A DNA stretch of 64,000 nt from an uncultured delta proteobacterium (lineage in GTDB: Bacteria > Desulfobacterota > Desulfobacteria > Desulfobacterales > B30-G6). Below the pieces are notes generated by a model. It had not been told where the DNA came from. It saw nothing but the letters and a program-made list of their open reading frames with translations, and ran no database searches. Positions 41,124 to 61,574 of the stretch are shown piece after piece; position 1 is the first letter of the stretch, and the number at the start of each line of letters is the position of its first letter. A program made the translations under genes and the position numbers. The DNA is taken from positions 41,180 through 105,179 of the forward strand of contig CAWKCS010000020.1 in NCBI GenBank assembly GCA_963848165.1. Reading direction: 5' to 3'.

Positions 41124-41183
41124 GTGACCCTCCTGGTGGTTTCAGTTTGATGGGGGCGATATCGTTATTTGGAGATTAGGAAT

Positions 41184-41199
41184 TGCACAAGGCGTGCCA
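41184..41199 (-). promoter_or_regulatory. sigma54 (-24/-12) promoter of the dual-receiver gene
   Basis: The minus strand reads TTGGCACGCCTTGTGCAAT. That is TGGCACG-N4-gTGC, with the GG and GC dinucleotide start positions 12 nt apart as in TGGCACG-N4-TTGC. It lies ~60 nt upstream of the ATG at 41123. Confidence 0.75.
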
Positions 41200-41533
41200 A
41201 AGAAACTAATTATATTAACCTTATTGAATTTATAGCAAATTATTTATTTCAAGCTGCTATGGCCCTTGAAAAACGTATAAATAAAATATACAGTATGTGA
41301 AGAAAAAATCCTGCAAAACAGAATGCTGTGAGGGTTGAATCCAAATATTTTATCCAACATGATTTCCATATGATATTCTGATATTATATAGAAAAGCGAC
41401 AATTTGGAATACGATTGCAAACCAGAAGAAGTACAAAACGTATAAAATAAATATACATGTATAAAAAATCATTGTAGTTCTACAGTTATGTGTTGTCATA
41501 GATATGTTCAGAGTAACCCATGCATGCAGTGAA

Positions 41534-41720
41534 GGGGTATCCATATTTTTTTTAAAAGACATATCAAACCAAGCCTTGCCTTGTGCCCACCGGATTGATG
41601 ATGAAATACGACTGGTTGTTAGTAACATTAGGCAGTCGAAACATCATCAATCCGGCAGGGCACTACGCTAGTGATGCAGATTGATCATGATATGTCTTTT
41701 AAAAAAAATATGGATACCCC
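41534..41720. repeat. 187-bp nested palindrome (perfect 33-bp outer arms, 21-bp inner arms)
   Basis: GGGGTATCCATATTTTTTTTAAAAGACATATCA (41534-41566) is the exact reverse complement of 41688-41720. The inner arms GTGCCCaCCGGATTGATGATG (41583-41603) and CATCATCAATCCGGcaGGGCAC (41642-41663) also pair. Confidence 0.9.
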
Positions 41721-41820
41721 CTTTTAGCACAGCCCAACGCTTTTTTAGTAAATTCAGTTAGCCGTTGAACCAGTTTAGAAAAGTAGGGGAGCAGGGCATA
41801 AGGGTGGGGGTACACGTAAA

Positions 41821-43251
41821 TCAGGATTCTTCGCCTTGGGAGCGACCAGGCAGGGTAATTCCGTGTTTTTTCATCAAACTCTGAAAGTTGGTACGTTGAA
41901 GGCCGGTTTTTTCACTGGCATGGGTGACATTCCAGTCGTTGTTTATCAGGGCGTTGAGGATGAAATTTTTTTCAACCGTTTGCACGGCTTTCCGGCGAAT
42001 CTCTTTTTTTATGGACTTGAGTTCTTCGTTGGTGGAGGGGGTGTATTCCACCAGATTTTCCAGATCGCCGAATTCGCCCAGGATCGGTAGCTCCTTGACA
42101 CCAATCATATCCCTGTCGCAGAGAATGATCGCCCGTTCGATCACATTCCGTAGCTGTCTAACATTTCCGGGCCAATCAAATGCAAGCAGGCGGCTGGTGG
42201 CGGCCTCATCGAGACCGCTGATCTCTTTTTTCATGGATTGCCCGAACTGCTTGATGAAATGATAGGCAATGGGGAGGATATCCATTTTTCTTTCCCTTAA
42301 GGGTGGAATGATGATCGGATAGACATAGATGCGATAATAGAAATCTTCCCTGAACGATCCTTCGGACACCATTTCCTCGAGGTGGGTGTTGGTGGCAAAT
42401 ATAAGGCGAACATCCACTTTCTTGGGTGATGTCCCGCCCAGAGGCAGAAATTCACGTGTTTCCAGGAACCGGAGGAGTTTTCCCTGGACCTCCATGCTGA
42501 TGTTGCTGATTTCATCCAGGAAAACAGTTCCCTTGTCCGCCAGTGAGAAAATACCGTCCTTTTGCCGATGGGCACCGGTAAAGGCGCCCTTGGTATGACC
42601 GAAGAGCTCATTCTCGAGAAGATTTCCGGACAGGGTGCCGCAATCCACCGCAAAGAATACATTTGATTTCCGTTTGCTGTTTGCATGGACTGCTCTGGAA
42701 ATCAGCTCTTTTCCGGTACCGCTTTCGCCTGTTACCAGAACCGTGGCATCTGTAGGTGCTACCTTTTCGACCATGGAGATGACTTTCCTTATCTTAGGGC
42801 TGCTGCCGATGAGCTGGTGGGAGGTGATTTTTTTTTGACCAATCTGGTTTTGCAGATTCCGGTTTTGCTGCTGTTGTTCCATATCTGTCAAGGCCTGGTG
42901 TACAACTGCCCTGAGTTCGTGGGGTGTAAAGGGTTTGGGGAGATAATCATAGGCCCCCATCTTCATGACTTCCACGGCCGAGGCTACGCTGGCATACCCG
43001 GTGATAACGATGACATGGGTATCGGGATAGGTTTCCTTGACCCTGTAAAGAAGCTCCATGCCACCCAGGCGGCTCATCTTGAGGTCGGTGACGATGATAC
43101 AAAACGGCTCATCCGCCATCATTTTCAATGCATCATATCCATTGAGTGCGTACTGGACATGATGGCCCTGTTTGGAGAGGATTTTGACACAGCTTTGGCA
43201 GATGTTGGGTTCATCGTCAACAATGAGGATCCGCCGCTGTTCAGTGTTCAT
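41821..43251 (-). CDS. sigma54-dependent response regulator (NtrC family: REC, AAA+, Fis-type HTH)
   Basis: MNTEQRRILIVDDE...IIVTDLKMSRLGG; Walker A GESGTGKE; sigma54-contact GAFTGA; C-terminal HTH WNVTHASEKTGLQRTNFQSLMKKHGI. The start at 43251 overlaps the kinase stop (ATGAACACTGA). Confidence 0.9.
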   Translation of the reverse strand: MNTEQRRILIVDDEPNICQSCVKILSKQGHHVQYALNGYDALKMMADEPFCIIVTDLKMSRLGGMELLYRVKETYPDTHVIVITGYASVASAVEVMKMGAYDYLPKPFTPHELRAVVHQALTDMEQQQQNRNLQNQIGQKKITSHQLIGSSPKIRKVISMVEKVAPTDATVLVTGESGTGKELISRAVHANSKRKSNVFFAVDCGTLSGNLLENELFGHTKGAFTGAHRQKDGIFSLADKGTVFLDEISNISMEVQGKLLRFLETREFLPLGGTSPKKVDVRLIFATNTHLEEMVSEGSFREDFYYRIYVYPIIIPPLRERKMDILPIAYHFIKQFGQSMKKEISGLDEAATSRLLAFDWPGNVRQLRNVIERAIILCDRDMIGVKELPILGEFGDLENLVEYTPSTNEELKSIKKEIRRKAVQTVEKNFILNALINNDWNVTHASEKTGLQRTNFQSLMKKHGITLPGRSQGEES

Positions 43252-44682
43252 AAACCTTGTCCTTTGCCAGGGGGAGCTTGATGGTAAAGGTCGTTCCATG
43301 CCCAAGCCTGCTTTCGGCCCCGATGGATCCGTTGTGTTGTTCGACGATGCCGTGGGTAATGGCCAGTCCGAGACCGCTGCCGTCACTCTTGGTTGTAAAG
43401 AACGGGTCAAAAATTTTTACCAGATTTTCTTCGGCAATACCTTCTCCGCTGTCGGCCACGGACACATGAATTTCACGGTTTTCAGGAACATACCGGGTAA
43501 GGACCCGCACATAACCACCGGCGGCGGTGGCCTCGATGGCGTTGAGTACGAGATTGATGAGGGATTGCTGAATCTGGCCCTTGTCCACGAGAACACGCGG
43601 CAAATTGGGACGCCAGGTCCTGTTCCACGGACACGTCCTTGAAGGCCGCCTGTTTTTTTGTCAGCAGGAGACTTTCCTTGACGATGTCGTTGAGATTGTG
43701 TTCTTTTTTGTCCGGTCTGGTCTGCCGGGCAAAATCGAGCAGGCTGGTGACAATCTTTCTGCATCTCAGGGTTTCTTTGGCAATGGTCTCCAATTCCAGG
43801 TACATGGGGTCTTCGGGTCGGGTCTCTTCCTGGAGCAGCATGGCTGTTGTCAAGATGGTGGTGAGGGGGTTGTTGATTTCGTGGGCGACACCCGCCGAAA
43901 GTCGCCCGATGGATGCCAGCTTTTCCTGCTGCATCATGCTCTTCTGAACGTTGATATCACCGGTGATGTCTCTGGATATCTCCACCACGCCCAGGATATC
44001 GCCGTCTTCGATAAGCGGATAGGTGGAGATGGAGTAGTAGATTTCCTTGTCGTCTTTGTCCAGATGAATGTGGGTGGTCTGGGATGGTTCGATGGTTTCC
44101 ATGGTTTTTAACAAGGGGCAGGGGTGCTTCTCCCCGGAGCATGGAAAGGACTGGCGATGGGTAATTTCGTAGCAGTATTTGCCCACCACTTCTTCTCTTT
44201 TGAGTCCCAGCCGGTTCAGGACGGTATTGTTGACGTCGATGATACGGTAGTCATGCCCGATGACCAGAACATCTTCCTGGATCAGTTCGTTGATCATTGT
44301 TTTGTACAGGGCGTTGGCTTCGTAGAGTTCCTGGCTGGTCTTTTTCTGCATGTTCGACACACGCGCGATTTCCCAGAAAAGCTGTGCGGTTCGAGTTGAT
44401 ATGGCGCGGACGTCCGGTCCCTTTTTTATTCAGGATGTCATAGATAATGTCTGTGTTGCCGGTGAGTTCGATGATAAGCTCGATATCGTCCCGGGAAAAC
44501 AGATCATTGTAGTCGGTGGTGGTGAAGAGACCCTTTTCTTTTGCAAGAAGCATACCCGGGGCATCGGTTTTCAGGTCTGCCACCGCAACGACCCTGGGGT
44601 GTATTTTTTCGAATTGGTGCTGATCGATGAGATTCAATAACTGGGCGCATTTTGTACCACCCCCGACGACGGCTATGTTCAT
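43241..44682 (-). CDS. sensor histidine kinase with N-terminal Rossmann-like domain, PAS, HisKA, HATPase; two apparent frameshifts (about 43607-43609 and 44419-44427)
   Basis: Three overlapping track ORFs tile one protein. First MNIAVVGGGTKCAQLL...ILNKKG | PDVRAISTRTAQLFWEIARVSNMQKK...PAS. Then H-box LSAGVAHEINNPL...VSVEQDLAS | NLPRVLVDKGQIQQSLINLVLNAIEA...DSGEGI...GSGLGL. Confidence 0.8.
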
Positions 44683-47839: not shown

Positions 47840-50107
47840 TTATTTTGGTACCGGAAACGACACAATAAAGCAGGTGCCCTGGTCCTTGTTGGGCAGGACC
47901 TCGATCATTCCCCCACAATCTTTGACAATGCCGTAGCTAATGGAAAGGCCTAAACCGGTACCCTTACCGACTTCCTTGGTGGTGAAAAATGGTTCGAAAA
48001 TCTTGTCTGCAACATGTTTTGGCATGCCGATGCCCGTGTCGCAGACCTCGGCGATGACCCGTCCGCCTTCCGTGTAGGTTCGGAGCGTAATGCGTTCTTC
48101 ATGACTGGTACGGCCGGCAGCCATTTTCTCCTCGATGGCATCCCTGGCATTGAGCAGGAGATTGATGATTACCTGTTCAAGGCGATCCGGGTCGGCATGG
48201 ATCTTGGGTAAGGTCTGGCTCATATCCCTGACCACCGCAATCCCTCTGACTTTCAGCTGCTGGCTGAAAATCTCGAATGCATTCACGAGGACGTCGTTGA
48301 TGGATATTTTCTCCATTGCCATGTCTGTTTTCCTGGCAAACTGCCGCATGTGGTTGATAATCCGGGCAGCCCGGTCGACATTGCTGTCCACTTTCGTCAG
48401 CATGGTATCCAGGATCTCTTTTTTAATGGTTTCGCCGCGGTTGATCTTCTTGATAAAAAAGCTACTGGCCGTCTTGATGACGGACAGGGGTTGATTCAGT
48501 TCGTGGGCAACGCCTGTGGCCATCTCGCCCAGTGTGGCCATTTTGCTGGCCTGGATTAGCTGTTGTTCCGCCTCAAGGCGTTTGGTGATGTCACTTGTGG
48601 TGACCAGGAGAACTTCTTGTCCGGAATATTCGGAGAGGGATACGCGAATATTGACATAAAGTTCCTTGCCGGTTTTTGTCAGATGTCTGGCCTGGTTAAT
48701 GATGGTATCTGTCTTTAGCCTAACGGCGTAGGTGTCCTTTTCTTCTTTACGGAACAGGTTCAGAAAGGAACTATTGATAAGGTCGCCGGTTGTAAATCCA
48801 TATACCGATTCTGCACTCATGTTACAGTCCAGGATCGTGAGGGTCTGGATGTCGAGTACAAATACTGGATTGGGTATGTTGCTGAAGATAGCATGATATT
48901 TCTTTTCCGACTTTTCCAGATCGACTTCGAGTTGCCGCCGTTCTGAAATATCGTGAGAGATTTCCATGGCGGCAACAACCTCGCCTTTATCGTTGACAAT
49001 GGGCGAGGTCCAGACGATCCAGTGTTTGATGCTGCCGTCCTTGTCGACACCGGTCTCTTCGGTTGAGTAAGATTTACCATCGGCAAATGTCCATTCGACC
49101 GGACAGCGCTCACACTTTTCCGAGCGGCCTTTGTAGGCGTGGTAGCAGAAATCCCCGGGAACGGGGTCGAAACGATTCGAAAACTCTTTATTATAACGCA
49201 GCAGCTTGAAATTTCGATTCTGGACGGTAATGATACAGGGTACCTGTTCAAACAGCTGCATATATTCATCCCGCTGCTTGTTGAGAGCTGTTTCATGCTC
49301 GGCGATTTCGGATCCCATTTTATCGATGGCATCCCCTAACTGCCCCATTTCGTCCTTCTGTGAAAGATGGGCTTTCCTGCCATAGTCACCCTTTGCAATA
49401 TCCCGGGTTCGGGTGATAAGTTTTTTGACGGGACGGTTGACAAACCGGAACACAAAGAAACAGATAATCGTAGACGTGAGAAGAAAAACGGAGATGGACA
49501 TGCCGATGATACCCCGTTGGAGTTGATACAGGCCTTTGTCTGTTTCTTTCAGAGAGACTACCAGGTCCAGGGCACCGAGAATTTTCTTTCCCTGGGGGTG
49601 AACATGACAGTCGTCGGTTGAACAACCCGGTTCGTTGCGGATAGGACTGATGATGCCGAGGAGTCGATATCCCCCGGCATGGTTGAAGATACGCGTTCTT
49701 TCATTCAGGGCGAGTTCGGAAAGGGGTGGTTCCGACCGGTGGCAGATGTCGCAGGCTTCGGCCTTGATGTTCGTGGACAGATCGACCTCGGATGGTCGGT
49801 TGGAAAATTTGATTTCCCCTGCTTTATTGTATATTCGGATATTCTCTATTTCAGGAAGCTGTCCGATGTTCATGATGATCTGGTTGATGTCGTCCCTGGA
49901 ATTGAGCATCATGGCGTAATGGGTTCCTAGCCGGATAGTGGTGGTAAGCCTGTCGGTGGTTCCCACAATATTTTGCATTTCTTTTTCCTTCTGATAGCGT
50001 ACATTAATGTAGGTCCAGATTGAAAAAGAAACGAGGAAGACAAGCCCCACGGTTAGCACAATTTTGGAGACAAGCCGGCTACGTATTTTGTTGAATAACG
50101 TCATCAT
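47840..50107 (-). CDS. sensor histidine kinase (periplasmic domain with CXXCH motif, HAMP, 2 PAS, HisKA, HATPase)
   Basis: TM1 at residues 15-35. The periplasmic region contains EACDICHRS and [10 protein letters not shown], followed by TM2/HAMP. H-box [13 protein letters not shown]; DTGIGMP; GTGLGL. Start is placed at MMTLFNK (50107), 7 nt after the upstream stop. Confidence 0.85.
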
Positions 50108-50114
50108 GAGCGGT

Positions 50115-53100
50115 TCACTGCTTTGGTTCAACGGGATAGACAGAGGAACCTGGTTGCCATGTGCTCTCAATGGCTGCATCGATCATGTCCAGCACCTGAT
50201 GATCGGCAAAGCCCTGGATCACGGAAGCACTGTTGGGGCATGCCGTGGCACAGTCGCCACATCCCTGGCACATGGCCGGGTTGACCACGATTTTCCCCAT
50301 GTCCGGATCCAGACGTCTTGCATGGTAAGGGCACGTATCGATACACCGTTCGCAAAGACTGCAGAGGCTGTGTCGAACCGAGGCGACGATTTTCCCGGCA
50401 GACAACTTTTCATGGGCGAGAATTCGTAATGCTCTTTGCGCGGCAGCGCCGGCGGTGGCGATGGTGTCCGGTATTGATCTGGGGGACAAGGCAATTCCGC
50501 AGCCAAAGACCCCTTCTTTGAGCGCGTCTACAGGGCGCCATTTGGATTCCGCTTCCAGAAAAAAACCGTCTTGATCCGCTTCCACGGCAAAGGCCTCCGC
50601 CAGGGTTGCCGGCAACTGCGGAACGATACCGGTGGCCAGAACCAGCAGATCGGCCTCTATCTCCAGAGGTCTATTCAGAATGGGATCTGTGACGGTAATT
50701 AAAAGGGGGGTATTCGCTTCCGTTGGAACGGTTACCCGGGGCGTGTTATCCAGGTCGTACTGGATAAAGATGACACCCGCCTTACGGGCTGCTGTGAAGT
50801 AGCTCTCGGTGAATCCAATGGTCATCATGTCACGGTAAAGAATGTAAACAGCTAACTGCGGGTTCGCTTTTTTCAGCTTTAAGGCGTGTTTCAACGATGT
50901 GGGGCAGCAGACCCGGCTGCAGTAATTCCTCGGTTCCTGCCTGGAATCCACACACTGAATCATCACCACGGAATCGAGTTTCTGCGGGTCGACATCACCC
51001 TGTACCAGACCCGATTCCAGTTCTTTCTGGGTCATGACGGCCTGACTGGTACCATAGCCATATGCACGGGTTGTGGCTTCGTTGCCGCCGGTTGCCAGAA
51101 TGGCGGTACCGTGTTGAATCGTTTCAATGGTTCCATCACCGCTTTCAATGGTTGTATAAAAATCACCCACTTCACCGAAAGCGGCCGTAATTTTTGTTTG
51201 CAGGTGGATATGCAGAAGCGGGTGCTTTTCTGCCGCCTGAGCGATTTGATGAAGATACGGCTCCAGAGAAAGCCCCTCAATGGTTTGCTGCAACCAGAGC
51301 AGGTTCCCTCCAAGTCTGTCACTTTGCTCCACAAGGTCCACAGGATACCCGTGATCCGCGATTGCCAGGGCGGCATGTATCCCGGCGATGCCGCCGCCGA
51401 CGACCAAGGCCCTTCTGGTGACAGGCAGCGAGGTTGTCGGTAGCGGATCCATGTTCTTTAACCGGGAAATGCCCATTTTTAAAGCTGATAGCTGATGGCT
51501 GATAGCAGATAACTGGTTTGTTTGGTTTTTGTTGTAAGCGAAGATCGGGGACATGATATCCACCACATCCATCATTTCGGCATCCAGATGAACCCGGCGG
51601 CTCAGCTCTCTCAATTTTCGGATGTAAAGATACGGATGGCATGCTCCTAGGAGGATTCGGTTGGGCTTGGAGGCTTCGATGATCCCGGTGAGTTCTTCCC
51701 ATCCTGTCGCCGTGCAGCATTGTCGGAGAAAAACGACCTTGTCCACACACGGATCCTGTTGGAGCTGGTGTGTCAATGCGTCGACGTCCAGGTGCTCCGA
51801 ATACTTGTTTCCACAATTGCAGACGGCTACAAGCATCTTCGGCGCTTCTCTTGAGACGTCCTGATTTGCCGGCTCAGAAAAAGATTCGTCTGAAAGACCG
51901 CCTCCCGCAGCATGAATGATCCGGGAGGCCTCCAGAGAAGCCGCAGATGCATACATCACGGATTCACTGATATCTTTGAGGCCTGAAAACGATCCGCCGG
52001 CCAGCACGCCCAATCGGTCGGTAGTCACCGGGGAAAGGGGTTCTGTCTGGATAAACCCCCAGGGATTCAGGGGTGCCTCGATCAGTTTTGATAATTCCTC
52101 GATACCACGGGCCGGGCGTTGTCCTACGGCCAGCACCACCAGATCGAAGGTTTCATTGTGGAGACGCCCATCGGTCTGGGCATATCGGATGAGCGGTTCT
52201 CCGGTCACGGCATCCGCTGTGATGGAATGGATGCGGGCCCTTTCAAATCGCACGCCGTGCTCCTGCTCTGCGCTGTCACGATAGCGCTGGAATGTTTTTC
52301 CGAAGGTGCGCATATCCATGTAAAAAATGGTGGTTTCAACGGGCGAGGGGTTCTTTTTTTTCACCAGCATGGCTTCCTTTATGGCGACCATGCAACAGAC
52401 GGAAGAGCAGTAATCTGCGTTGAACTGGACATCTCGAGAGCCGACACACTGTATCCAGGCGATCTTCTCAATTTTTTTACCATCATGGGGGCTCACCAGT
52501 CGGCCTTGTGTCGGCCCGGTGCCGCTCAGCATCCGTTCCAGTTCGAGACTGGTTATCACCCCGGGGGTTGTCCCGTAGCCGTATACATTTTTTGATTCGG
52601 CAGGGTCGAAATATGCCGTGCCACCAGAAAAAACGATGGCACCCACCTCAAGGTGTTGAATGTCACCGACTTCGATCTCCTCGTAAATCTGAACGATTTT
52701 CGCGATCATCCGTTCCGGATCAAATGGTTTCATCAGATAATCCTGGGCACCTATTTTCATGGCTTCCACGGCGGTTTCCACCGTGGCAAAAGCGGTCATC
52801 ATCAATACACACAGGTCCGGAAAATTTTCTTTTGCTTTCTTGAGGAGATCGACGCCATCCATTCCCGGCATCTTGATATCCGTCAACATGAGGTTAAACG
52901 ACGCCTTTGACAGCTTTTCCAGGGCCACGGATCCGGATTCAGCCACATCCACGAAGAAACCTTCTTCGTCCAGCCATTCCTTCAGGGAGTCGCGTACGAT
53001 CAGTTCGTCATCCACCACGAGGACACGAAACTCTTTCCGTTTCTCAAGTGACAGCTCGATGGCCTGGGTGGGACAAATCTTTTCGCATTCTCCACAGTGG

Positions 53101-53597
53101 TTGCAGGATGCAAGATCAATGATATAAGGGTTAGGGATCGTGTGGGGAACGGGCAGGTAGATTGCCTTGCGTGTTGTCAAGCCTTCATTGAACGTGTCGG
53201 GGATTTCCACCGGGCAAACCGCTTCACAGACGCCGCAGCCAACACATCGTTCGGGATCGACCCAGGTGGGCTTTTTACGCACGGATACCGAAAATTTGCC
53301 TGGTTCGCCGTCTATGGCCATGACTTCTGTGTTGAGAAGAATATCGATATTTTCGTGAAAAAGGCCCTTGCGTAGGCAGAACTGAGATGATTGGTCGCGT
53401 TTGACGAGGGGCAGCATCTTGCACATGCCGCAATGATTTGAGGGAAACTGATCGTCTAACTGGCTGAGAATTCCGCCCATATGCGGCTCACGATCGATGA
53501 GGGTAACACCGTAACCGGTTTCGGCCAGATCGAGTGCCGAGCGGATACCGCTGATGCCGGCGCCTACTACCAGCGCTTTACCCATTTTTTTACCCAT
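50115..53597 (-). CDS. tandem HdrA-like flavo-Fe-S protein with a complete receiver (REC) domain inserted in the first HdrA unit
   Basis: 1160 aa. ALVVGAGISGIRSALDL...FPSNHCGMCK...CVGCGVCEAVCPV...RKAIYLPVP...CNHCGECEKICPTQAIE. Then the REC segment: FRVLVVDDELIVRD...LMLTDIKMPGMDG...MMTAFATVETAVEAMKIGAQDYLMKPF. Then LEVGAIVFSGG...WIQCVGSRD...CCMVAIKEA. Then a second unit: LVAVCNCG...[15 protein letters not shown]...IQCVDSRQ...CSLCERCIDTCP...CQGCGDCATACP. Confidence 0.85.
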   Translation of the reverse strand: MGKKMGKALVVGAGISGIRSALDLAETGYGVTLIDREPHMGGILSQLDDQFPSNHCGMCKMLPLVKRDQSSQFCLRKGLFHENIDILLNTEVMAIDGEPGKFSVSVRKKPTWVDPERCVGCGVCEAVCPVEIPDTFNEGLTTRKAIYLPVPHTIPNPYIIDLASCNHCGECEKICPTQAIELSLEKRKEFRVLVVDDELIVRDSLKEWLDEEGFFVDVAESGSVALEKLSKASFNLMLTDIKMPGMDGVDLLKKAKENFPDLCVLMMTAFATVETAVEAMKIGAQDYLMKPFDPERMIAKIVQIYEEIEVGDIQHLEVGAIVFSGGTAYFDPAESKNVYGYGTTPGVITSLELERMLSGTGPTQGRLVSPHDGKKIEKIAWIQCVGSRDVQFNADYCSSVCCMVAIKEAMLVKKKNPSPVETTIFYMDMRTFGKTFQRYRDSAEQEHGVRFERARIHSITADAVTGEPLIRYAQTDGRLHNETFDLVVLAVGQRPARGIEELSKLIEAPLNPWGFIQTEPLSPVTTDRLGVLAGGSFSGLKDISESVMYASAASLEASRIIHAAGGGLSDESFSEPANQDVSREAPKMLVAVCNCGNKYSEHLDVDALTHQLQQDPCVDKVVFLRQCCTATGWEELTGIIEASKPNRILLGACHPYLYIRKLRELSRRVHLDAEMMDVVDIMSPIFAYNKNQTNQLSAISHQLSALKMGISRLKNMDPLPTTSLPVTRRALVVGGGIAGIHAALAIADHGYPVDLVEQSDRLGGNLLWLQQTIEGLSLEPYLHQIAQAAEKHPLLHIHLQTKITAAFGEVGDFYTTIESGDGTIETIQHGTAILATGGNEATTRAYGYGTSQAVMTQKELESGLVQGDVDPQKLDSVVMIQCVDSRQEPRNYCSRVCCPTSLKHALKLKKANPQLAVYILYRDMMTIGFTESYFTAARKAGVIFIQYDLDNTPRVTVPTEANTPLLITVTDPILNRPLEIEADLLVLATGIVPQLPATLAEAFAVEADQDGFFLEAESKWRPVDALKEGVFGCGIALSPRSIPDTIATAGAAAQRALRILAHEKLSAGKIVASVRHSLCSLCERCIDTCPYHARRLDPDMGKIVVNPAMCQGCGDCATACPNSASVIQGFADHQVLDMIDAAIESTWQPGSSVYPVEPKQ
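51481..51513. repeat. AGCT-type short-unit repeat inside the HdrA-REC coding region
   Basis: AAAGCTGATAGCTGATGGCTGATAGCAGATAAC encodes the linker ...QLSAISHQLSALK... between the two HdrA units. It has the same flavour as the intergenic AGCT palindromes. Confidence 0.6.
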
Positions 53598-53633: not shown

Positions 53634-53699
53634 GGCTCTTAGCTCTTGGCTGTTAGCATTTAGCGGCTACGAGCTACGAGCAAAGAGCTAACAGCTAAT
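53634..53699. repeat. AGCT-type palindromic spacer between the Fe-S subunit gene and the HdrA-REC gene
   Basis: GGCTCTTAGCTCTTGGCTGTTAGC...GCTACGAGCTACGAGCAAAGAGCTAACAGC. It is preceded by the tight palindrome GAATTTGACG-tt-CGTCAAATTC (53611-53632). Confidence 0.75.
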
Positions 53700-54840
53700 T
53701 GTTCAGTCCAACAATTTCAGTAAATTCATCTTCCTTGAATTCAGACAGGGGCGGTTTTTCTTCCAGACTTCTGCCGGCCTCGTAGTCGAATGCCTGCTGG
53801 GTTTTGTGTGCGATCGTGCGAAACAACGGCATGATCGCTATGTCGTTGGGGCAGGCATTGGTGCATTGTCCACATCCGACGCAGGCAGTGCTCATGTGTG
53901 CCAGGCGGGTGATGTGGTACAGCAACGTGTCCGTCGGCATTTTTACAGCCCCTTTTTTTCTGGCCCATTGCAGGTACTGAATGGGTTCGTGGTCGAAAAC
54001 ATCGGTCACGAAAACACACTCTCTGCAATAACAGACAGGGCATGCAACCCGACAATTGTAGCAGTTCACACAACCGGCCAGATAATCATTCAGTTTCTCA
54101 AGGCTGCCGATCTTGTCTCCGACGTCAGCGAACATATTGTCTCGAAATGTGGTCCTTTCCGAAATCAAGCGGTCGATTTCTTTCCTGCGCGATGCAGGTT
54201 CTTCTGCCGTTGCGAGATCGAGGTCTTCCAGGAGACGGCCTCCCTTGTCCGTGAGTGACTGGACCAGGATTTGCCGACCGATATCCACACCGAAAAAACC
54301 GATGCTGATGTCGGCACCTTCGGCTACGGGGAGTTCACAGGACCGACATGCCTGTGTCAGTTCAATGCCATCCATGTCGGCGCTCTTTCCGGAAAGCACC
54401 TGGGCGGCAAATGTATTCGTGGCCTCGTCCCCGTTTTCTCCTGACCAGTTCAGATAATCCCTGTTTCCTAATGCTCCCGGGCAGTCAATGCCGATGAGTA
54501 TCAACTCGTCCGTGCGCGCTTGCTTGAGTTTGACCAGTTCCACAAAGGCTCTGATTTCGCATGGTCGCATCACGGCTGCTATGTTTCCCCCCGAGGGTTT
54601 GCGTGTGAGCCTCGATACGATTTTGGCACTGTTCATTGGAAATGCCGGGGACAGGGGGTCCACACCGTTCAATTGGTCCGGATCCGTCAACAGGGTCGGC
54701 ATGACCATCTTTTTCGTTGGAACCCTCCAGGGAGCCAGGATGGCGCTGATGTCCTCCTTTTCCAGGATATTTTCGAACAGCACCCTGAGCGCACCAAGCA
54801 AATCCTGATCTTTAACGTCTATTTTGGCCGTTTTTATCAT
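53695..54840 (-). CDS. Fe-S subunit (FrhB-like N-domain plus CX2CX2CX3CPxCYC dicluster), paralog of 31550-32498
   Basis: 381 aa with MRPCEIRAFVELVKL...LIGIDCPG, CVNCYNCRVACPVCYCRECVF and CVGCGQCTNACPNDI. Confidence 0.6.
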   Translation of the reverse strand: MIKTAKIDVKDQDLLGALRVLFENILEKEDISAILAPWRVPTKKMVMPTLLTDPDQLNGVDPLSPAFPMNSAKIVSRLTRKPSGGNIAAVMRPCEIRAFVELVKLKQARTDELILIGIDCPGALGNRDYLNWSGENGDEATNTFAAQVLSGKSADMDGIELTQACRSCELPVAEGADISIGFFGVDIGRQILVQSLTDKGGRLLEDLDLATAEEPASRRKEIDRLISERTTFRDNMFADVGDKIGSLEKLNDYLAGCVNCYNCRVACPVCYCRECVFVTDVFDHEPIQYLQWARKKGAVKMPTDTLLYHITRLAHMSTACVGCGQCTNACPNDIAIMPLFRTIAHKTQQAFDYEAGRSLEEKPPLSEFKEDEFTEIVGLNN

Positions 54841-54865: not shown

Positions 54866-54975
54866 GTTGTCGGTTCTTAGCCTTGGCTTAGCTCTTGGCT
54901 CTTAGCCGGCTAACAGCTAAGAGCCAAGAGCTAAGACTTACCCTCGACCCTTCAACCCCTCCAACCCTTCCTCAC
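54866..54975. repeat. composite spacer: AGCT palindrome with a perfect 20-bp stem plus a C-rich CCCTCRAACCC tail
   Basis: CTTAGCTCTTGGCTCTTAGC (54887-54906) is the exact reverse complement of GCTAAGAGCCAAGAGCTAAG (54916-54935). It is followed by CCCTCGACCCTTCAACCCCTCCAACCCTTCC. Confidence 0.9.
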
Positions 54976-55397
54976 CCCACCCTCTGCAACCTGGCCTGGC
55001 TGGGTCCCAGGGCCTTGATCTGGGCCACAAGCTCCTGAAGGGTTTCGGCCAGCAGAACACCATCGCTGGCCGCTATCCATGTGAGCCTCAGTCGTTCAGG
55101 CTCAAATCCGAAACTGGGCAGGATCTCTTTCAGCAGCTTGATGCGCCGGCGGGCTTTGAAATTTCCATTGATGTAATGGCAGTCGCCGGGATTGCAGCCG
55201 CTCACAAGAACCCCATCAGCACCTTCCAGCAGTGCTTTGATGACATACTTGGGGTCCACCATTCCACTGCACATCACCCGGATGATTTTTATGTTCGGCG
55301 GATACGAGAGGCGCGATGTGCCGGCCAGGTCTGCCGCCGTATAGGTGCACCAGTTGCAGAAGAAGGCCAGGATGGTGGGTTCAAAATTGTCGTTCAT
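54972..55397 (-). CDS. MvhD-type subunit (Cys version)
   Basis: 141 aa with ILAFFCNWCTYTAADLAG...IRVMCSGMV...VLVSGCNPGDCHYINGN. Confidence 0.85.
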   Translation of the reverse strand: MNDNFEPTILAFFCNWCTYTAADLAGTSRLSYPPNIKIIRVMCSGMVDPKYVIKALLEGADGVLVSGCNPGDCHYINGNFKARRRIKLLKEILPSFGFEPERLRLTWIAASDGVLLAETLQELVAQIKALGPSQARLQRVG

Positions 55398-55810: not shown

Positions 55811-58800
55811 CTACCCCGCCAATAGTCCTTCAATTTCAGAAAAAATCTGCTTGTCCGTAAAATGTCGCACCTTGGCTGCGCCGCTGGGACAGTATCCGGC
55901 ACAACTGCCGCACCCTTTACAGATGGCTTCGTTGACCTCGCTGATGCCTTTGCGTTCGTTGAATTCGATAGCCGTATAGGGGCAGAGGCTGATACACACC
56001 TGGCATCCGATACAGATATCCGGGTCGATGGTGGAGATCATCGGTGACACCGCCACCTGGCCGGAAGCGCTGAGTGAAAGTGCTTCGGCGGCGGCCCCTT
56101 TGGCCTGGGCAACGGTATCCGGAATATCTTTGGGCCCCTGGCAGGTGCCGGCCAGGAAGACGCCGCTCGTGGCGGTGGAGACGGGTTCGAGCTTGGGGTG
56201 TTCTTCCTGGTAGAAACCATCACTTCCTGTGGAAATACCGAAGATTCTGGCCACATCGTTGACATCGGGACGTGGCTCCATGGCCGTACACAGAATCACC
56301 ATTTCCACGGGAATTTTCATTAAACTGTCGGAGAGGGTGTCTTCTGCGGTCACCCACAGCATGTCGTCGACTTCTTCTACACGGGAGGCTTTGCCGCGGA
56401 TCATGCGAACACCTTCGCTCTGGACACGCTTATAGAATTCTTCATACCCTTTGCCGAAGCAGCGCATGTCGATATAGAAATTGTAGATCTGAGTTTCGTG
56501 GCCACATTTGTCCTTGAGAAGATGGGCGTACTTCAAGGCATACATGCAGCATGTGCGGGAACAGTACTCATGATGGTTGATATCACGACTGCCGATACAA
56601 TGCAGGATAGCCACGCTTTTGGGTGGTTCGGTGAATTTGAGACGATCGTCAGGGTCGCGTTTCAGAAGCCGGCCGCTTGTGGGTCCGGTGGCATTCGACA
56701 GGCGTTCGAATTCCAGATTGGTGAAGACGTTGGCATACCGGCCGTAGCCGTATTGTGTCATGGGGGTCGGATCAAGGGGATCGAAGCCCGTGGCAACAAT
56801 GATGGAACCCACATCGATTTCCTGTATTGTTTCCGTCATGTCATGATTGATGGCCTTTGCCTCACAGGCATCCACGCACAGTTTACATTCACAGCACCCG
56901 CCGCAATCCAGGCATCTGAGAGGCTTCCGCTCTTGCCGCTTCCTCTGAAAAATTATGATCGACCTCATGGAAGCTCTTCACGCGCTGTTGTGGGTCCAGT
57001 TGGGTGGATACGACGCGGGGGGTTGCCTCGACATCTTCGGGGACGGGCTTCCAGTTGTTTCCCGGTATTGAGTCAACATCCGCTTGCTCAAGGATTTGAC
57101 GGCGGTCTTTTTCCCTGAGATAGCGATGGATGGCCGCCACAGCCTTGTGGCCGGCGGCAACAGCCTCGATGACCGTTGCCGGTCCGGTGACGGCATCACC
57201 GGCGCCGAATACATGCGGGAGACTGGTCTGCATTGTTGCGGGATTGACCTTGATGGTATTTCGCGTGGTCAATTCCAGACCGGGTTCTTTTGTGGCCCAG
57301 GACACATCGATTTTTTGTCCGATGGCAGGAATGACGGCATCGCATGGTACGACATATTCGGAGCCCTTTACCGGCACGGGACGTCGGCGCCCGCTGGCAT
57401 CCGGAGGTCCGAGTTCCGTCTGGATGCAGGTACATCCGGTTACATGCCCATCCTTGCTCTGTATGCCCACAGGTGCCGTGAGAAAGGAGAGTTCAATGCC
57501 TTCCTCCCGGGCCCCGTTGATTTCTTCCTTGTAGGCAGGCATTTCCCGTTCGGAACGTCTGTAGACCACCGTGACATGTTCGGCCCCGAGACGTTTGGCT
57601 ACCCGGGCTGCGTCTATGGCTACATTTCCGCCGCCGATGACGATGACCTGCTTTCCCGGTGCTTTTCGACTTCCCAGGTTGATTTCCCTCAAAAACCCGA
57701 CGGCATCGATGACCTCTGCAGCCTGGTCTTCCCCCTGGATCTGCATCTGGAGGGAGCCGTGTGCCCCGATTCCCAGAAAAACAGCTGAAAATCCTTTTGA
57801 CTCAAGATCCGACAGGGACAGGTCCCGGCCGAAGCGTACATTCGTTTCAACGTCGATCCCGTGCTGAAGGAGATGTTGGATCTCATTGTCCAACAGCTTT
57901 GCCGGCAATCGATAATCGGGGATGCCCACACGGAGCATCCCTCCCAGTTGGTCGAGTGCTTCGAACAAAGTGATGCGGTAGCCTTTGAGTCTCAGGTAAT
58001 AGGCCACGGTGAGGCCGGCGGGTCCGGAACCGATGACGGCGATTTTTTCCGGCCGATCTTCGATCTCCGGAAGGGGCAGGTCGGTGAAATCCACCTGGTC
58101 GGCGGCAAAGCGTTTCAACTCACGGATGGCGACCGGGGTGTCCACATCGACCCGACGACAGGCTTTTTCACATGGTGCCGGACAGACCCGGCCAAGGGTC
58201 CCGGGGAGGGGTATCTTCTCCATGATCAGTTTCACGGCCTCCCGGTATTGCCCGGTTTTGATGAGGGCGATATAGCCCTGGACGTTCGTTCCCGCAGGAC
58301 ATGTCTGAACACAGGGAGCCCGATCATATTTATCGATGCAGTAGGTGATGGGAACGGCCTGGGGAAATGGCCGGTAAATTGCTCTTCTCATCTTGGTGCC
58401 CACATCCCATTCATTGGGGAAAGCAACGGGACACACTTTTTCACACTCGCCGCACCCGGTGCATTTCGGTTCGATATAACGTGCTTTACGGTGGACCTTT
58501 ACTTTGAAGTTGCCGATGAAGCCACTGACATCCACGATCTCACTGTAAGACAAAAGCTCGATGTTGGGCTCCTGCCCCACAGAGACCATTTTTGGTGTTC
58601 CGATGCAGGCCGCACAGTCCAGGGTTGGAAAGGTTTTGTCATACTGGAGCATGTGACCACCGATGGTGGGTGCCCTTTCAACCAGGTATACCTTGAAACC
58701 GGCCTTGGCGATATCGAGAGATGCCTGCATACCGGCGATGCCGCCGCCTACCACGAGCGTGTTTGTGCAGACAGGGAATTTTGCCGGTGTTAAATCCTGC

Positions 58801-59192
58801 TGGTGAACAACCCGCATAATGCCTGCACCGACCAGGATTTTGGCTTTTTGCGTTGCTGCTTCCTCCTCCAGGGTGACCCAGGAAACATGCTCCCGAACAC
58901 TGACCATGTGGAAGGCCTTGTAGGGGTTGAGGCCGGCGCGCTGGCAGGCAGCCCGAAAGGTTTTTTCATGCATCCGGGGAGAGCAGGATGCCACGACCAC
59001 GCGCGTGAGATGGTGGGACCGAATATCATTTTCAATCAATTCCTGACCCGGGTCGGAACACATGAACAGATAATCTCGTGATACAGCTACATTCGGGAGG
59101 GTCGCAACATAAGCGGCAACCTCTTCCACCCGGACACGGTAAGCGATATTGATGCCGCAGTGGCAGATATAGAATCCGATGCGTTCAGGCAT
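55811..59192 (-). CDS. HdrA-like protein with a GltD/NfnB-like NAD(P)H-FAD module inserted (HdrL-type); apparent frameshift around 56915-56930
   Basis: ORF 56889-59210: MPERIGFYICHCGINIA...[14 protein letters not shown]...FPTLDCAACI...CTGCGECEKVCPV...RRAIYRPFPQAVP. Then CPAGTNVQGYI...IAVIGSGPAGL...VIVIGGGNVAIDAAR...GAGDAVTG. ORF 55811-56968 carries the rest of HdrA: RCLDCGGCCECKLCVDAC...VGSIIVATGFDPLDP...LHCIGSRD...CCMYALKYA...CIGCQVCISLCP...CKGCGSCAGYCP. The two frames abut at ...EEAARAEA|. Confidence 0.8.
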
Positions 59193-61485
59193 GCAGGACC
59201 TCCTGGTCAAGTTTTAAATTGATATGAACAGGCATGGAGTGTTCGTATCTCGTTTCGATGGATTGGATCAGCAACTCGGCAATATCTTGAACGACGATTC
59301 GGTCTTGGAAACCAAGGGTCATGATGGCTTCCTGGAGCATCCGTGTGCAATAGGGACAGGCCGTGGCGATCACGCCGGCTCCGGTATCCAGGGCCTGTTC
59401 TATTCGCAGTTCAGCCAGTCGGCCATTGGAAGAAGGTTCACCGAATGCACCCCCACCTCCGCCCCCGCAGCAGAGGCTGTGATGACGGTTATCAGGCATC
59501 TCGACAAGGCTGAGGCCCGGGATGCTCCTCAAGATACGGCGCGGTGCGTCATAGACGCCGTTGTGGCGTCCCAGGTAACAGGGATCGTGAAAGGTGACAC
59601 GGTTTTTTACCTCGAATCTGGGGGTCAGATCTCCTTTCGAGACCAGTCGATCCAGGAGCACGGTGTAGTGTTCGATTTCCATGTTCGTCGGTGCGTCTGC
59701 ATAGGCTTTTCGAAATGTGTCAAAGCAATGGGGGGAGGTCGTGAGGACTCTTTCAACGCCCCGACGTTCAAAAAGCGACATATTTTCATTTGAGAGGGTC
59801 GAAAAAAGGTCCCCAGCCCCTAACCTGAAGGCGGGGTCTCCACAGCAGCGCTCTTTTGTACCGAGGGTGCCGAAGGAGACGCCTGCCTGGATCAGCAGTC
59901 TGAGCAGGGCCCGGCCGGCATGGCTGCATTTCTGGGATGGCGTGTCGTCATATGCCGTGGTGCAGCACGTGAACAGGCAGTAGGCGTGTTCCGGATTGAA
60001 ATCGGGTATATCGATATCCTCTGCCCAGCCGGATCGTTGTCCGGGGTTCCCTCCCCAGGGATTTCCTCTCTCTGCCAGGTACTCCAGCGGCATTTCGAGG
60101 CGTGCGGGGGCTGTTCCCTGTTTGTTCTGGATTTCCCGGATGGATCTTATCACGTCGATAATATCGATACCCCGGAGGCAGGCGTCCCCGCAGGCATTAC
60201 AGGTGACGCAGTCCCATGCGGCGTTATCAACGGTTTTTTCGGTACCGGTATTCAGACCGATGTGACGAAGAATCTGTCTGGGGCTGTAATCCGATACCCG
60301 GTTCCAGGGGCAGGCAGCGGTGCAGGTGCCGCACTGCACACAGATCATGAACATCTCTCCAATGAGCGCTTTGACGTCTTCGACGTTGACGGAAGAGTGT
60401 TTTACGGCTTTTTCCCGAACCGTTGTCAAAAACAGGGCCAGCGGACGGTAGAAGAGGTGCGACCACTTTCCAAAAGGGACCTCGATGACCAGCATGGGTA
60501 CGGCGATGGCCAGGTGGATGACGTACATGACATAGGTGCCCATGGGCCACCCGGCCAGGCGGACCAGGTGCATGATAATACCGGTCAAGGTCGTTAAAAA
60601 TAGCAGGATCAGAAAAAGCCAGTCGGAAAGTTCTGAAAAGCGGTGAATGGCTTCTTGTTTCCTGCGCCGGCTCTGGAACATTTCGATGGTAATGAACAGG
60701 ATGACGCCGGTGGCATAGTATCCGAAGAGACTCGAGAAATGCCAGCTGCTGTCATCCACCTGAAACCAGCGGATGAATACGATAATCAGCGTCATCATGG
60801 TCATGTAGCCGGATACCAGCAGAAAATGTTTCAACCAGCGGCTCTTGTCCTCACCGCATTCCCGCCAGCGCTTCTGGGTTGCAAAGTGGAGCACAAAGGC
60901 TTTTGCTTCGGTGAGATAAAGACGGAAGGGTACGGACGTGTCGTTCATGATGAATCGGAACATTCTGAATGCATTTGACAAGAGAAAGAGTGTCAACACA
61001 GCCGCCATGCTCAGATCGCCGATTTCGATCCACAGGACCGGCACAAAGGTGTTGACGGCAACGCGGTCGGTAATGATGGGGCCGTGAAAAAACCAGAAGA
61101 GGGCGATGATGCCGAATGCCACCACGCCCAGGGCACCCAGTTCCCATGCTTCGGAGATATAGAATTTTTTGGCGAGACCGGTCCAGTCGTACTGGGTGGT
61201 CAACCACCGGCGGGTTGCCATCATGGTTTCTGCGGGTTCGGCCCCCCGGGGACAATCTAAATTGCATTCACCACAATAGTAACAGAGCCATGGGACCGGT
61301 GATTTGAGCAGCTTGTCCCTTAAACCCAGCTGAAGATAGCGGTATATCTTTCGGGGAAACGTATCTGTACCGGTGGAGAGTGGGCACGATGCGCTGCAGG
61401 TGCCGCACTGCATGCAGATTTCCATGTCCCTGGCTCCGAATTTCGCTACTTCCTGGTAGAGTTCCGGGTCGACGCTGTTGTACAT
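59185..61485 (-). CDS. fusion of a QmoC/HdrC+E-like module (2x4Fe-4S plus membrane b-type domain) with an HdrD-like module (2x4Fe-4S plus two CCG domains)
   Basis: CMQCGTCSASCP...CYYCGECNLDCP, then ~6 TM helices. Then CVQCGTCTAACP...CVTCNACGDAC. Then CCTTAYD/CCGDPAF and PCYLGRH/CCGGGGG/CPYC. Start is placed at MYNSVDP (61485), which has the RBS AGAGAGG. Confidence 0.8.
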   Translation of the reverse strand: MYNSVDPELYQEVAKFGARDMEICMQCGTCSASCPLSTGTDTFPRKIYRYLQLGLRDKLLKSPVPWLCYYCGECNLDCPRGAEPAETMMATRRWLTTQYDWTGLAKKFYISEAWELGALGVVAFGIIALFWFFHGPIITDRVAVNTFVPVLWIEIGDLSMAAVLTLFLLSNAFRMFRFIMNDTSVPFRLYLTEAKAFVLHFATQKRWRECGEDKSRWLKHFLLVSGYMTMMTLIIVFIRWFQVDDSSWHFSSLFGYYATGVILFITIEMFQSRRRKQEAIHRFSELSDWLFLILLFLTTLTGIIMHLVRLAGWPMGTYVMYVIHLAIAVPMLVIEVPFGKWSHLFYRPLALFLTTVREKAVKHSSVNVEDVKALIGEMFMICVQCGTCTAACPWNRVSDYSPRQILRHIGLNTGTEKTVDNAAWDCVTCNACGDACLRGIDIIDVIRSIREIQNKQGTAPARLEMPLEYLAERGNPWGGNPGQRSGWAEDIDIPDFNPEHAYCLFTCCTTAYDDTPSQKCSHAGRALLRLLIQAGVSFGTLGTKERCCGDPAFRLGAGDLFSTLSNENMSLFERRGVERVLTTSPHCFDTFRKAYADAPTNMEIEHYTVLLDRLVSKGDLTPRFEVKNRVTFHDPCYLGRHNGVYDAPRRILRSIPGLSLVEMPDNRHHSLCCGGGGGGAFGEPSSNGRLAELRIEQALDTGAGVIATACPYCTRMLQEAIMTLGFQDRIVVQDIAELLIQSIETRYEHSMPVHINLKLDQEVLHA

Positions 61486-61574
61486 GATACGGCCTCTCTT
61501 ACGTTGTAACAACTCTGTGTGATTCTTCTCCTGGGAATGTTCCCGGGCCCTGTGCTATGGCCATGTATATAAAG

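Follow-up and report, generated by a model that had tools for sequence, protein, structure and literature searches.

The stretch of DNA analysed here, 64,000 nucleotides of contig CAWKCS010000020.1 from an uncultured delta proteobacterium (hereafter the window), encodes a tandem HdrA protein of 1160 amino acids with a complete CheY-like receiver domain (REC) inserted in its fold. HdrA is the flavin and iron-sulfur core subunit of heterodisulfide reductase (Hdr)-type complexes, and the protein is called REC-HdrA below. We established the architecture of the protein, the insertion site and the conservation of kinase genes in its neighbourhood, and found that the phosphorylation switch of the receiver is intact and strongly conserved. 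It is reasonably probable, judging from these sequence data, that phosphorylation of the aspartate D240 switches the Hdr-type complex, with the kinase of the operon as the donor, either directly or via a REC-kinase hybrid. The specific electron branch that would be gated is the least certain step of this proposal and is put forward tentatively.

Architecture of the tandem HdrA and its receiver

An earlier note, made from the letters of the window alone, had read a complete receiver in the middle of the protein and had called for a profile search, which bears this reading out. PF00072 (Response_reg) matched residues 192-301, within the range that had been given (nt 52680-53033), and covered model positions 1-110 of 111 (E 2e-30; 105.7 bits vs. 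a cutoff of 30.2). The acidic pocket, phospho-acceptor, threonine and lysine motifs were all present as described, namely VVDDE (D196/D197), LMLTDIKMPGMDG (D240), MMTAF (T268) and YLMKPF (Y287, K290). The residues D196, D197, D240, T268 and K290, together with Y287, the switch tyrosine three residues before the lysine as in CheY, were invariant in 121 sequences. Moreover, the D-D-D-T-K quintet was canonical in all but eight of 281 family REC matches, the exceptions being three fragments, one protein with K changed to N (P0322) and four members of a degenerate lineage (P0124) considered below. The receiver had a mean pairwise identity of 73% and the remainder of the protein one of 63%; the distances of the two parts co-varied (r = 0.77), as expected if the receiver was inherited together with the rest of the protein. 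Helix alpha1, the beta3 loop and the alpha4-beta5 stretch were nearly frozen.

The receiver and two short linkers, ~128 residues altogether, are inserted between HdrA residues ~320 and ~326 in the alignment with structures of the Protein Data Bank (PDB). At this point the inserted ferredoxin domain leads back into the thioredoxin-reductase (TrxR) fold, and the position that had been assigned to the receiver, between the inserted-ferredoxin motif and the strand that follows it, is thus the correct one. The AlphaFold2 (AF2) model gave a canonical (beta-alpha)5 fold at residues 191-308 with a predicted local distance difference test (pLDDT) value of about 90, and 74-87 for the linkers; helix alpha5 of the receiver leads within four residues into a flavin-domain strand. 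Structure prediction had been proposed as a check on the receiver, and its fold came out as anticipated. The alpha4-beta5-alpha5 face also invites another explanation, in which the phosphorylated receiver dimerizes through this face (as in NtrC1/DctD- or OmpR-type regulators) or docks a partner, and so controls oligomerization or assembly, for example with HdrL or HdrF, instead of the internal electron path. That alpha4 and beta5 form the most conserved stretch of the receiver, that the closest receivers of known structure belong to the FixJ and NtrC1 types, and that the HdrA dimer of the canonical Hdr is internalized here would all suit such a role. However, the fixed short linkers and the confident AF2 placement suggest intramolecular packing, and we consider control of assembly unlikely; it is a variant of the phosphorylation switch rather than its opposite.

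On both sides of the receiver the protein is HdrA. In a phmmer search of all PDB chains, methanogen HdrA was the best match, at 25-29% sequence identity. Residues 7-184 paired with HdrA 153-320 of 8rvu, which comprise the start of the TrxR fold and the inserted ferredoxin domain, and residues 315-456 paired with HdrA 326-465; the pairing with 5odc was similar. Further downstream, residues 582-758 corresponded to the HdrA N-terminal domain and the flavin adenine dinucleotide (FAD)-binding start of a second flavin domain, and residues 964-1144 to the C-terminal part of HdrA with its C-terminal ferredoxin. Both units therefore align with solved HdrA structures, and the description of the protein as a tandem HdrA is upheld. 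The Pfam matches to FAD and Pyr_redox families (residues 7-41 and from 730) and to 4Fe-4S motifs (112-132, 160-180 and 1079-1123) lie in the same places, HdrA chains were the first fold matches in Foldseek, and the AF2 prediction for the whole protein, made on the family alignment, had a mean pLDDT of 82 and a predicted template modelling score of 0.80. Residues 560-725 were also considered as an MvhD/FlpD domain; no such Pfam match was obtained, and the region pairs with the HdrA N-terminal domain. On its sequence the protein is HdrA-like and not an equivalog of the CoB-CoM heterodisulfide reductase.

The two units are complementary. The first has the inserted ferredoxin domain and the cysteines C56 and C59, and is devoid of the N-terminal domain and the C-terminal ferredoxin; the second has these two domains, and is devoid of the inserted ferredoxin and of an equivalent of Cys197. 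The inserted ferredoxin, the C-terminal ferredoxin and the N-terminal cluster domain are thus present once each, spread over the two units, and each unit has its own GxGxxG motif and its own set of [4Fe-4S] cysteines (C384/397/401/402 and C882/893/897/898). All cofactor ligands were invariant in 116 aligned sequences, including G12, G14, G17, C56, C59 and all eight inserted-ferredoxin cysteines in unit 1, and G734, G736, C882, C893, C897, C898 and all eight C-terminal-ferredoxin cysteines in unit 2. By analogy, C59 of unit 1 would complete the N-terminal cluster of unit 2 in trans, and the core would be a single-chain pseudo-heterodimer of two HdrA units with complementary accessory domains.

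Complementarity of this kind, in which the chain is its own heterodimeric partner, is a rule for the fused HdrAs of anaerobic methanotrophic (ANME) archaea and Moorella (PMC9012536). ANME HdrA3/HdrA4 and the MetFV-HdrABC-MvhD complex of Moorella thermoacetica have, like the protein in the window, two units per chain and complementary domain loss, one unit having the N-terminal cluster domain without Cys197 and the other Cys197 without the N-terminal domain (PMC9012536). In contrast to them, the order is reversed here, with the Cys197-bearing unit first; the inserted and C-terminal ferredoxin domains are split between the units; and there is a receiver, which no described fused HdrA has. With the methanogen MvhAGD-HdrABC, Fdh-Hdr-Fmd and Elp-Hdr complexes (5ODC, 7BKB, 8RVU) the protein shares the fold, all cofactor-binding motifs and the gene association with MvhD and HdrB/HdrC-type CCG proteins. 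It differs from them in its bacterial host, which makes no CoM-S-S-CoB, and in the single-chain pseudo-dimer, the receiver insert and a partner, HdrL, with an NAD(P)H module.

Distribution and origin of the insertion

We found that REC-HdrA is a large, old and widespread family under selection and is not peculiar to this genome. All of the 120 best database clusters were ~1130-1170 amino acids long and had PF00072, and another 120 clusters, from a search seeded with a Syntrophobacter member, were also full-length with PF00072. All 80 loci listed from one-genome-per-species contigs, complete chromosomes and isolates among them, encoded an essentially full-length protein (51-91% identity). The verified loci are these 80; the search total of 579 does not tell how many genomes encode REC-HdrA, since one of the two search patterns is an HdrA motif common to REC-less proteins. 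The carriers were mainly Desulfobacterales, Syntrophobacterales and Desulfatiglandales, including Desulfosarcina, Desulfonema, Desulfospira joergensenii DSM 10085, Desulfobacterium N47, Desulfatirhabdium, Syntrophobacteraceae and Olavius symbionts. Among the cultured carriers are Desulfonema magnum and Desulfoferrobacter suflitae. The survey for the same insertion that had been suggested thus traced it across Desulfobacterales and beyond, in one clade. A mis-assembly joining two genes had also been raised, and a chimeric gene call fusing a response regulator to hdrA was considered with it. Nothing pointing that way was found for REC-HdrA itself, though a 1-nt frameshift in the adjacent hdrL means that the assembly is not flawless. 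In contrast, the same continuous open reading frame (ORF) occurs in 80 independent genomes and 240 protein clusters, and HdrA sequence stands on both sides of the receiver; the probability of an artefact is practically negligible.

The insertion has a single origin. An exhaustive search was made over 1.84 billion representatives at 50% identity, and the top 150 were examined. Of these, 15 had a receiver at the same site, and about 100 were REC-less tandem HdrAs with a 3-residue junction. The insert measured 128-130 residues in 12 of the 13 REC-bearing representatives in which both flanks were located; in the other, P0244, it had 145 residues owing to an extra loop inside the receiver. All REC-bearing sequences fell into one clade, with a REC-less sequence as sister, in a neighbour-joining tree built without the REC columns and without bootstrap support. 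Nested inside this clade was a REC-less tandem HdrA of 1021 amino acids (P0123; locus L081, 4612-7677), with 52% identity to the query, a 6-residue junction and the operon type kept. As this protein lacks the receiver and yet lies within the REC clade, it apparently represents a secondary loss. About 25 of the 150 representatives had inserts of 300-500 amino acids resembling NfnB/GltD, which interrupt the inserted ferredoxin domain somewhat further upstream. The idea of one insertion hotspot for both kinds of insert holds in part only: the NfnB-like inserts lie between the two cysteine motifs and the receiver after the second. A recent duplication of a neighbouring receiver was also considered and rejected, the inserted receiver being just 33-40% identical to the four other receivers of the window.

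The degenerate and REC-less relatives serve as natural controls. The degenerate lineage (P0124, P0276, P0272; L089 10001-13468, L090 10001-13516) comes from metagenome-assembled genomes (MAGs) labelled Thermodesulfobacteriota or 'Desulfovibrio sp.' and has kept an insert of REC size, in which the acidic pair is altered, T is changed to G and K to H, and the phospho-site aspartate is retained. Its operon has hdrC-hdrB, then a Usp gene and NiFeSe hydrogenase genes, and is without the kinase pair that follows the gene elsewhere. The kinase pair is missing where the receiver is degenerate, which points the same way as a partnership between receiver and kinases. This lineage, which retains the insert without its T and K, and the nested P0123, which lost the receiver entirely and kept the operon, would also suit a structural relic, that is, a REC fold acting only as a spacer or docking domain and never phosphorylated. 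However, fragments aside, the quintet is altered in just 5 of 281 REC sequences, and none of the 121 checked for Y287 lacks it; moreover, the receiver is more conserved than the catalytic body, and dedicated kinases co-occur with it. We regard a relic as very unlikely.

The close REC-less tandem-HdrA operons often have a small output-less receiver and a kinase at the same place. In L082 (14403-17433) and L083 (9306-11841), hdrB is followed by a receiver of 129 amino acids and then by a kinase of 769 amino acids; in L087 (12768-14799), hdrB is followed by a PAS kinase and then by a receiver of 181 amino acids; and in L084 (1982-3178) a REC-HATPase hybrid lies just upstream. Two other REC-less relatives had no signalling genes nearby. 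The context, not the sequence, suggests a fusion history (a 'tethered CheY'), and by analogy the free CheY-like protein of the REC-less operons may do the job of the inserted receiver.

The operon and its kinases

The order of the operon in the window, all on the minus strand, is an HdrF-like membrane CCG protein, HdrL, MvhD, an FrhB/FdhB-like subunit, REC-HdrA, a sensor kinase and a REC-kinase hybrid (table 1). The earlier note had placed the two kinases directly after REC-hdrA, and their Pfam domains and the start site of the first agree with this. The sensor kinase has transmembrane (TM) helices at residues 12-30 and 200-218, and the loop between them (residues 31-199) contains CXXCH at residue 119 and CX4CH at residue 162 (nt 49739-49753 and 49604-49624, minus strand). 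Both motifs were present in 42 of 42 kinase orthologues, the second one as CX3-4CH. Moreover, the kinase of the REC-less locus L082 aligned with that of the window from end to end, heme motifs included (29% identity, E 4e-109). The sole PDB match of the loop was 3B47, very weak (E 0.45) and over the second motif, and the kinase had a weak Pfam match to PF21563; we take 3B47 to be the heme-c sensor domain of a Geobacter chemoreceptor and PF21563 the corresponding family. On the basis of these motifs the loop is likely a c-heme periplasmic redox sensor. In the Geobacter heme-c PAS-like sensors (GSU0582/GSU0935), too, two TM helices enclose a periplasmic loop in which a heme-c motif is conserved; unlike them, the kinase of the window has two motifs and a histidine-kinase output instead of a methyl-accepting chemotaxis protein. 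The second kinase gene encodes a hybrid with an NtrB-like H-box, 'SHGIKG', read from the sequence.

The neighbours are conserved in related loci (table 1). The gene of the kinase orthologue mostly overlaps the preceding hdr gene (hdrB in L031) or starts a few nucleotides after it. That orthologues of the kinase (40 of 53 loci) and of the hybrid (32 of 49) lie downstream supports the dedicated phosphorelay that had been thought plausible, as does the absence of both from the degenerate lineage. The thiol/disulfide module was compared in 38 loci: soluble HdrC/HdrB lay directly downstream in 28, HdrF lay upstream in 9, and in none were both found. The HdrF-headed version includes the window, and soluble HdrC and HdrB were identified in L031 (13556-15066). 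HdrF thus replaces soluble HdrC/HdrB in the subclade of the window. From this gene content the complex would consist of HdrL (the NAD(P)H module), MvhD, the FrhB-like subunit, the tandem HdrA and HdrCB or membrane HdrF.

Table 1. REC-HdrA, its parts and its neighbours (positions in the window; counts refer to related loci with enough flanking sequence, and the denominator differs per neighbour)
Feature	Position (nt)	Strand	Evidence	Conserved in loci
Fused tandem HdrA with inserted receiver, 1160 aa, flavin/Fe-S core subunit	50115..53597	-	ORF, translation, Pfam, NCBIfam	
Unit 1, residues 1-110: FAD-binding start of TrxR fold; C56 and C59 equivalent to HdrA Cys194 and Cys197	53268..53597	-	aligns from HdrA 153	
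Unit 1, residues 111-184: inserted ferredoxin domain, two [4Fe-4S] motifs (C118/121/124/128, C165/168/171/175)	53046..53267	-	Pfam Fer4	
REC (CheY-like) domain, residues 189-306; D240 codon at 52878-52880	52680..53033	-	PF00072, AF2	
Unit 1, residues 313-570: rest of TrxR fold, [4Fe-4S] site C384, C397, C401, C402	51888..52661	-	aligns with HdrA 326-509	
Unit 2, residues 582-725: HdrA-type N-terminal domain (C593, C595, C628, C653)	51423..51854	-	aligns with HdrA 8-150	
Unit 2, residues 726-1070: second FAD-binding TrxR fold, without inserted ferredoxin and Cys197 equivalent	50388..51422	-	Pfam Pyr_redox_2/FAD from residue 730	
Unit 2, residues 1071-1160: C-terminal ferredoxin domain (2 x [4Fe-4S])	50118..50387	-	Fer4_7 at 1079-1123; aligns with HdrA 575-654	
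HdrF-like membrane subunit: Fer4, NarI-like TM region, Fer4, two CCG domains	59185..61512	-	Pfam	
hdrL: HdrA with NfnB/GltD-like NAD(P)H module, two ORFs (56889-59210, 55811-56968)	55811..59210	-	Pfam	upstream; C-terminal half 49/50, N-terminal part 45/50
MvhD ([2Fe-2S] electron-transfer subunit)	54972..55397	-	Pfam FlpD, E 3e-53	upstream, 54/55
FrhB/FdhB-like Fe-S/flavin subunit, directly upstream of REC-hdrA	53695..54840	-	Pfam FrhB_FdhB_C and Fer4	upstream, 64/67
HdrC				downstream, 46/65
HdrB				downstream, 45/65
Membrane sensor histidine kinase: TM, extracytoplasmic loop, TM, HAMP, PAS, PAS, HisKA, HATPase	47840..50107	-	Pfam; start 7 nt past hdrA stop	downstream, 40/53 (36 on same strand within 4.6 kb)
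REC-histidine-kinase hybrid, 386 aa	46501..47661	-	Pfam Response_reg and HATPase_c	downstream, 32/49
PAS-HisKA ORF	43482-44360	-	downstream	
REC-sigma54 activator	41821-43410	-	downstream	
Protein with two receiver domains	39459-41123	-	downstream	

Signalling genes abound around REC-hdrA (they encode an NtrC-type regulator, a PAS-HisKA protein and a double-REC protein), and the REC-kinase hybrid suggests a pathway of several steps. Receivers that serve as phosphate sinks are well established as a concept. REC-HdrA might be a signalling node, in which the redox state of the flavin and Fe-S centres is the input to phosphorylation or dephosphorylation of the receiver, and the receiver acts as a phosphate sink or relay for the two kinases, tuning transcription, for example via the sigma-54 activator. 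However, the NtrC-type gene is kept with the hdr cluster in close relatives only, every cofactor ligand of a working enzyme is invariant, and the gene lies within a conserved enzyme operon with HdrCB or HdrF. No DNA-binding regulator conserved with the kinase pair was found across the related loci. In Syntrophobacter fumaroxidans, moreover, a related complex that shares this gene content, HdrABC/HdrL (Sfum_0819-0821), is an abundant part of catabolism during sulfate reduction and a proposed link between NADH, ferredoxin and DsrC (PMC5947623). Its HdrA may be an orthologue; the locus tag gave no match, and the search seeded from a Syntrophobacter MAG gave no named S. fumaroxidans protein. We judge a signalling node to be improbable.

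Other features of these loci are recorded here. The signalling genes at 39459-44360 are conserved with the hdr cluster in close relatives only (e.g., L005, L064 and L077). In hdrL, one extra base near 56917-56919 results in two overlapping ORFs of 773 and 385 amino acids; in the DNA alignment the window reads GCCTCTCAGATGCC where relatives have GCCTCCA-GATGCC. The two halves jointly cover the single HdrL of 1131 amino acids of L082, and in 49 of 49 related loci they share a frame. The split is due to a sequencing error or is a genuine frameshift. In L033 (13558-20155), which is without the kinase pair, REC-hdrA is followed by genes for a TetR regulator, EtfB, EtfA, an HdrD-like CCG protein and an acyl-CoA synthetase, an order which hints that the complex may be linked to fatty-acid oxidation in that organism.

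Proposed function and its meaning

In solved Hdr complexes, low-potential electrons leave the bifurcating flavin via the inserted ferredoxin domain, and a conformational change gates the transfer (PMC13518236; PMC9012536). The tandem protein contains just a single exit domain of this kind, and the receiver sits on its C-terminal hinge via short linkers of fixed length. By homology to bifurcating Hdr complexes, the complex is presumably electron-bifurcating. We infer phosphotransfer to the receiver, a donor kinase and a gated electron path as follows. The membrane kinase would probably sense the periplasmic redox state through c-type heme and would phosphorylate D240, directly or via the adjacent REC-kinase hybrid. 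The T268/Y287 switch would then act on the alpha4-beta5-alpha5 face, where alpha5 is nearly continuous with the flavin-domain strand, and switching of the receiver could shift the position or the accessibility of the ferredoxin-domain clusters, by repositioning or occlusion. The low-potential branch, or the whole enzyme, would thus be toggled on and off without new protein synthesis. In its fullest form, which we offer as a possible though speculative scenario, a periplasmic c-heme kinase would, within seconds, open and close the low-potential branch of an NAD(P)H-linked Hdr complex in the cytoplasm by way of a receiver grafted onto the hinge of the ferredoxin-exit domain, and in REC-less relatives a free CheY-like protein would dock on HdrA instead.

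Some observations weigh against a kinase-driven switch of an Hdr-type enzyme. The two best NCBIfam models scored well below their cutoffs (NF040770 HdrA2, 678 bits vs. 1100; NF041778 HdrA, 563 vs. 1400), the further NCBIfam matches being many response-regulator models over residues 188-308. No orthologous kinase lay within 10 kb in 13 of 53 loci. The free receivers of the REC-less relatives were 33% identical to the inserted receiver, no closer than unrelated receivers, and the sequence thus gives no support to the inserted receiver being one of these stand-alone proteins after fusion.

Several elements of this system are already known, namely fused tandem HdrAs (PMC9012536), domain insertions in the ferredoxin region of HdrA, and response regulators with enzymatic output. 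In CheB, PleD/WspR and RpfG, as here, a canonical receiver is covalently joined to an enzyme and a cognate kinase is encoded nearby; their receivers are terminal, whereas this one lies in the middle of a catalytic fold, where a subdomain with bound cofactors hinges, and the enzyme is part of a redox complex of several subunits. Fusions of REC with thioredoxin reductase (REC-TrxB), a flavoenzyme of the same superfold as HdrA, have also been noted (PMC5847659). HdrL of D. autotrophicum (PMC2702500) and ANME-1 HdrA9-11 (PMC9012536) likewise have a whole foreign domain in the inserted-ferredoxin region. However, their NfnB-like module separates the two cluster motifs and contributes a catalytic cofactor site, while the receiver stands after the second motif and adds a signalling switch. 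Database labels for the family include 'response regulator', 'FAD-dependent oxidoreductase' and 'heterodisulfide reductase subunit A', and the Desulfonema magnum entry is titled 'Two component system response regulator domain-containing protein, FAD/NAD(P)-binding'. Since the proteins are labelled 'response regulator', annotation pipelines have already met the domain combination. In the literature searched, in agreement with the earlier note, we found no characterised HdrA of this architecture and no description of a receiver inside a bifurcating HdrA subunit, nor of a conserved pairing of REC-HdrA with a heme-type sensor kinase, and a survey of the domain architectures of HdrA from 2024 does not include REC-HdrA.

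Anaerobes that live near the thermodynamic limit depend centrally on flavin-based electron bifurcation to conserve energy. What is known of the switching of bifurcating enzymes between directions or idle states is limited to transcriptional or substrate-driven regulation. REC-HdrA is a rare clear case of a receiver domain within an enzyme fold rather than appended to it. An intact phospho-switch in the bifurcating subunit, with its own redox-type kinase in the operon, would constitute a direct and fast control point and, if true, the first post-translational, phosphorylation-based control of flavin-based electron bifurcation. The family abounds in sulfate reducers of marine and freshwater habitats, in syntrophs and in the symbionts of gutless worms, so that any such control would bear on carbon and sulfur cycling.

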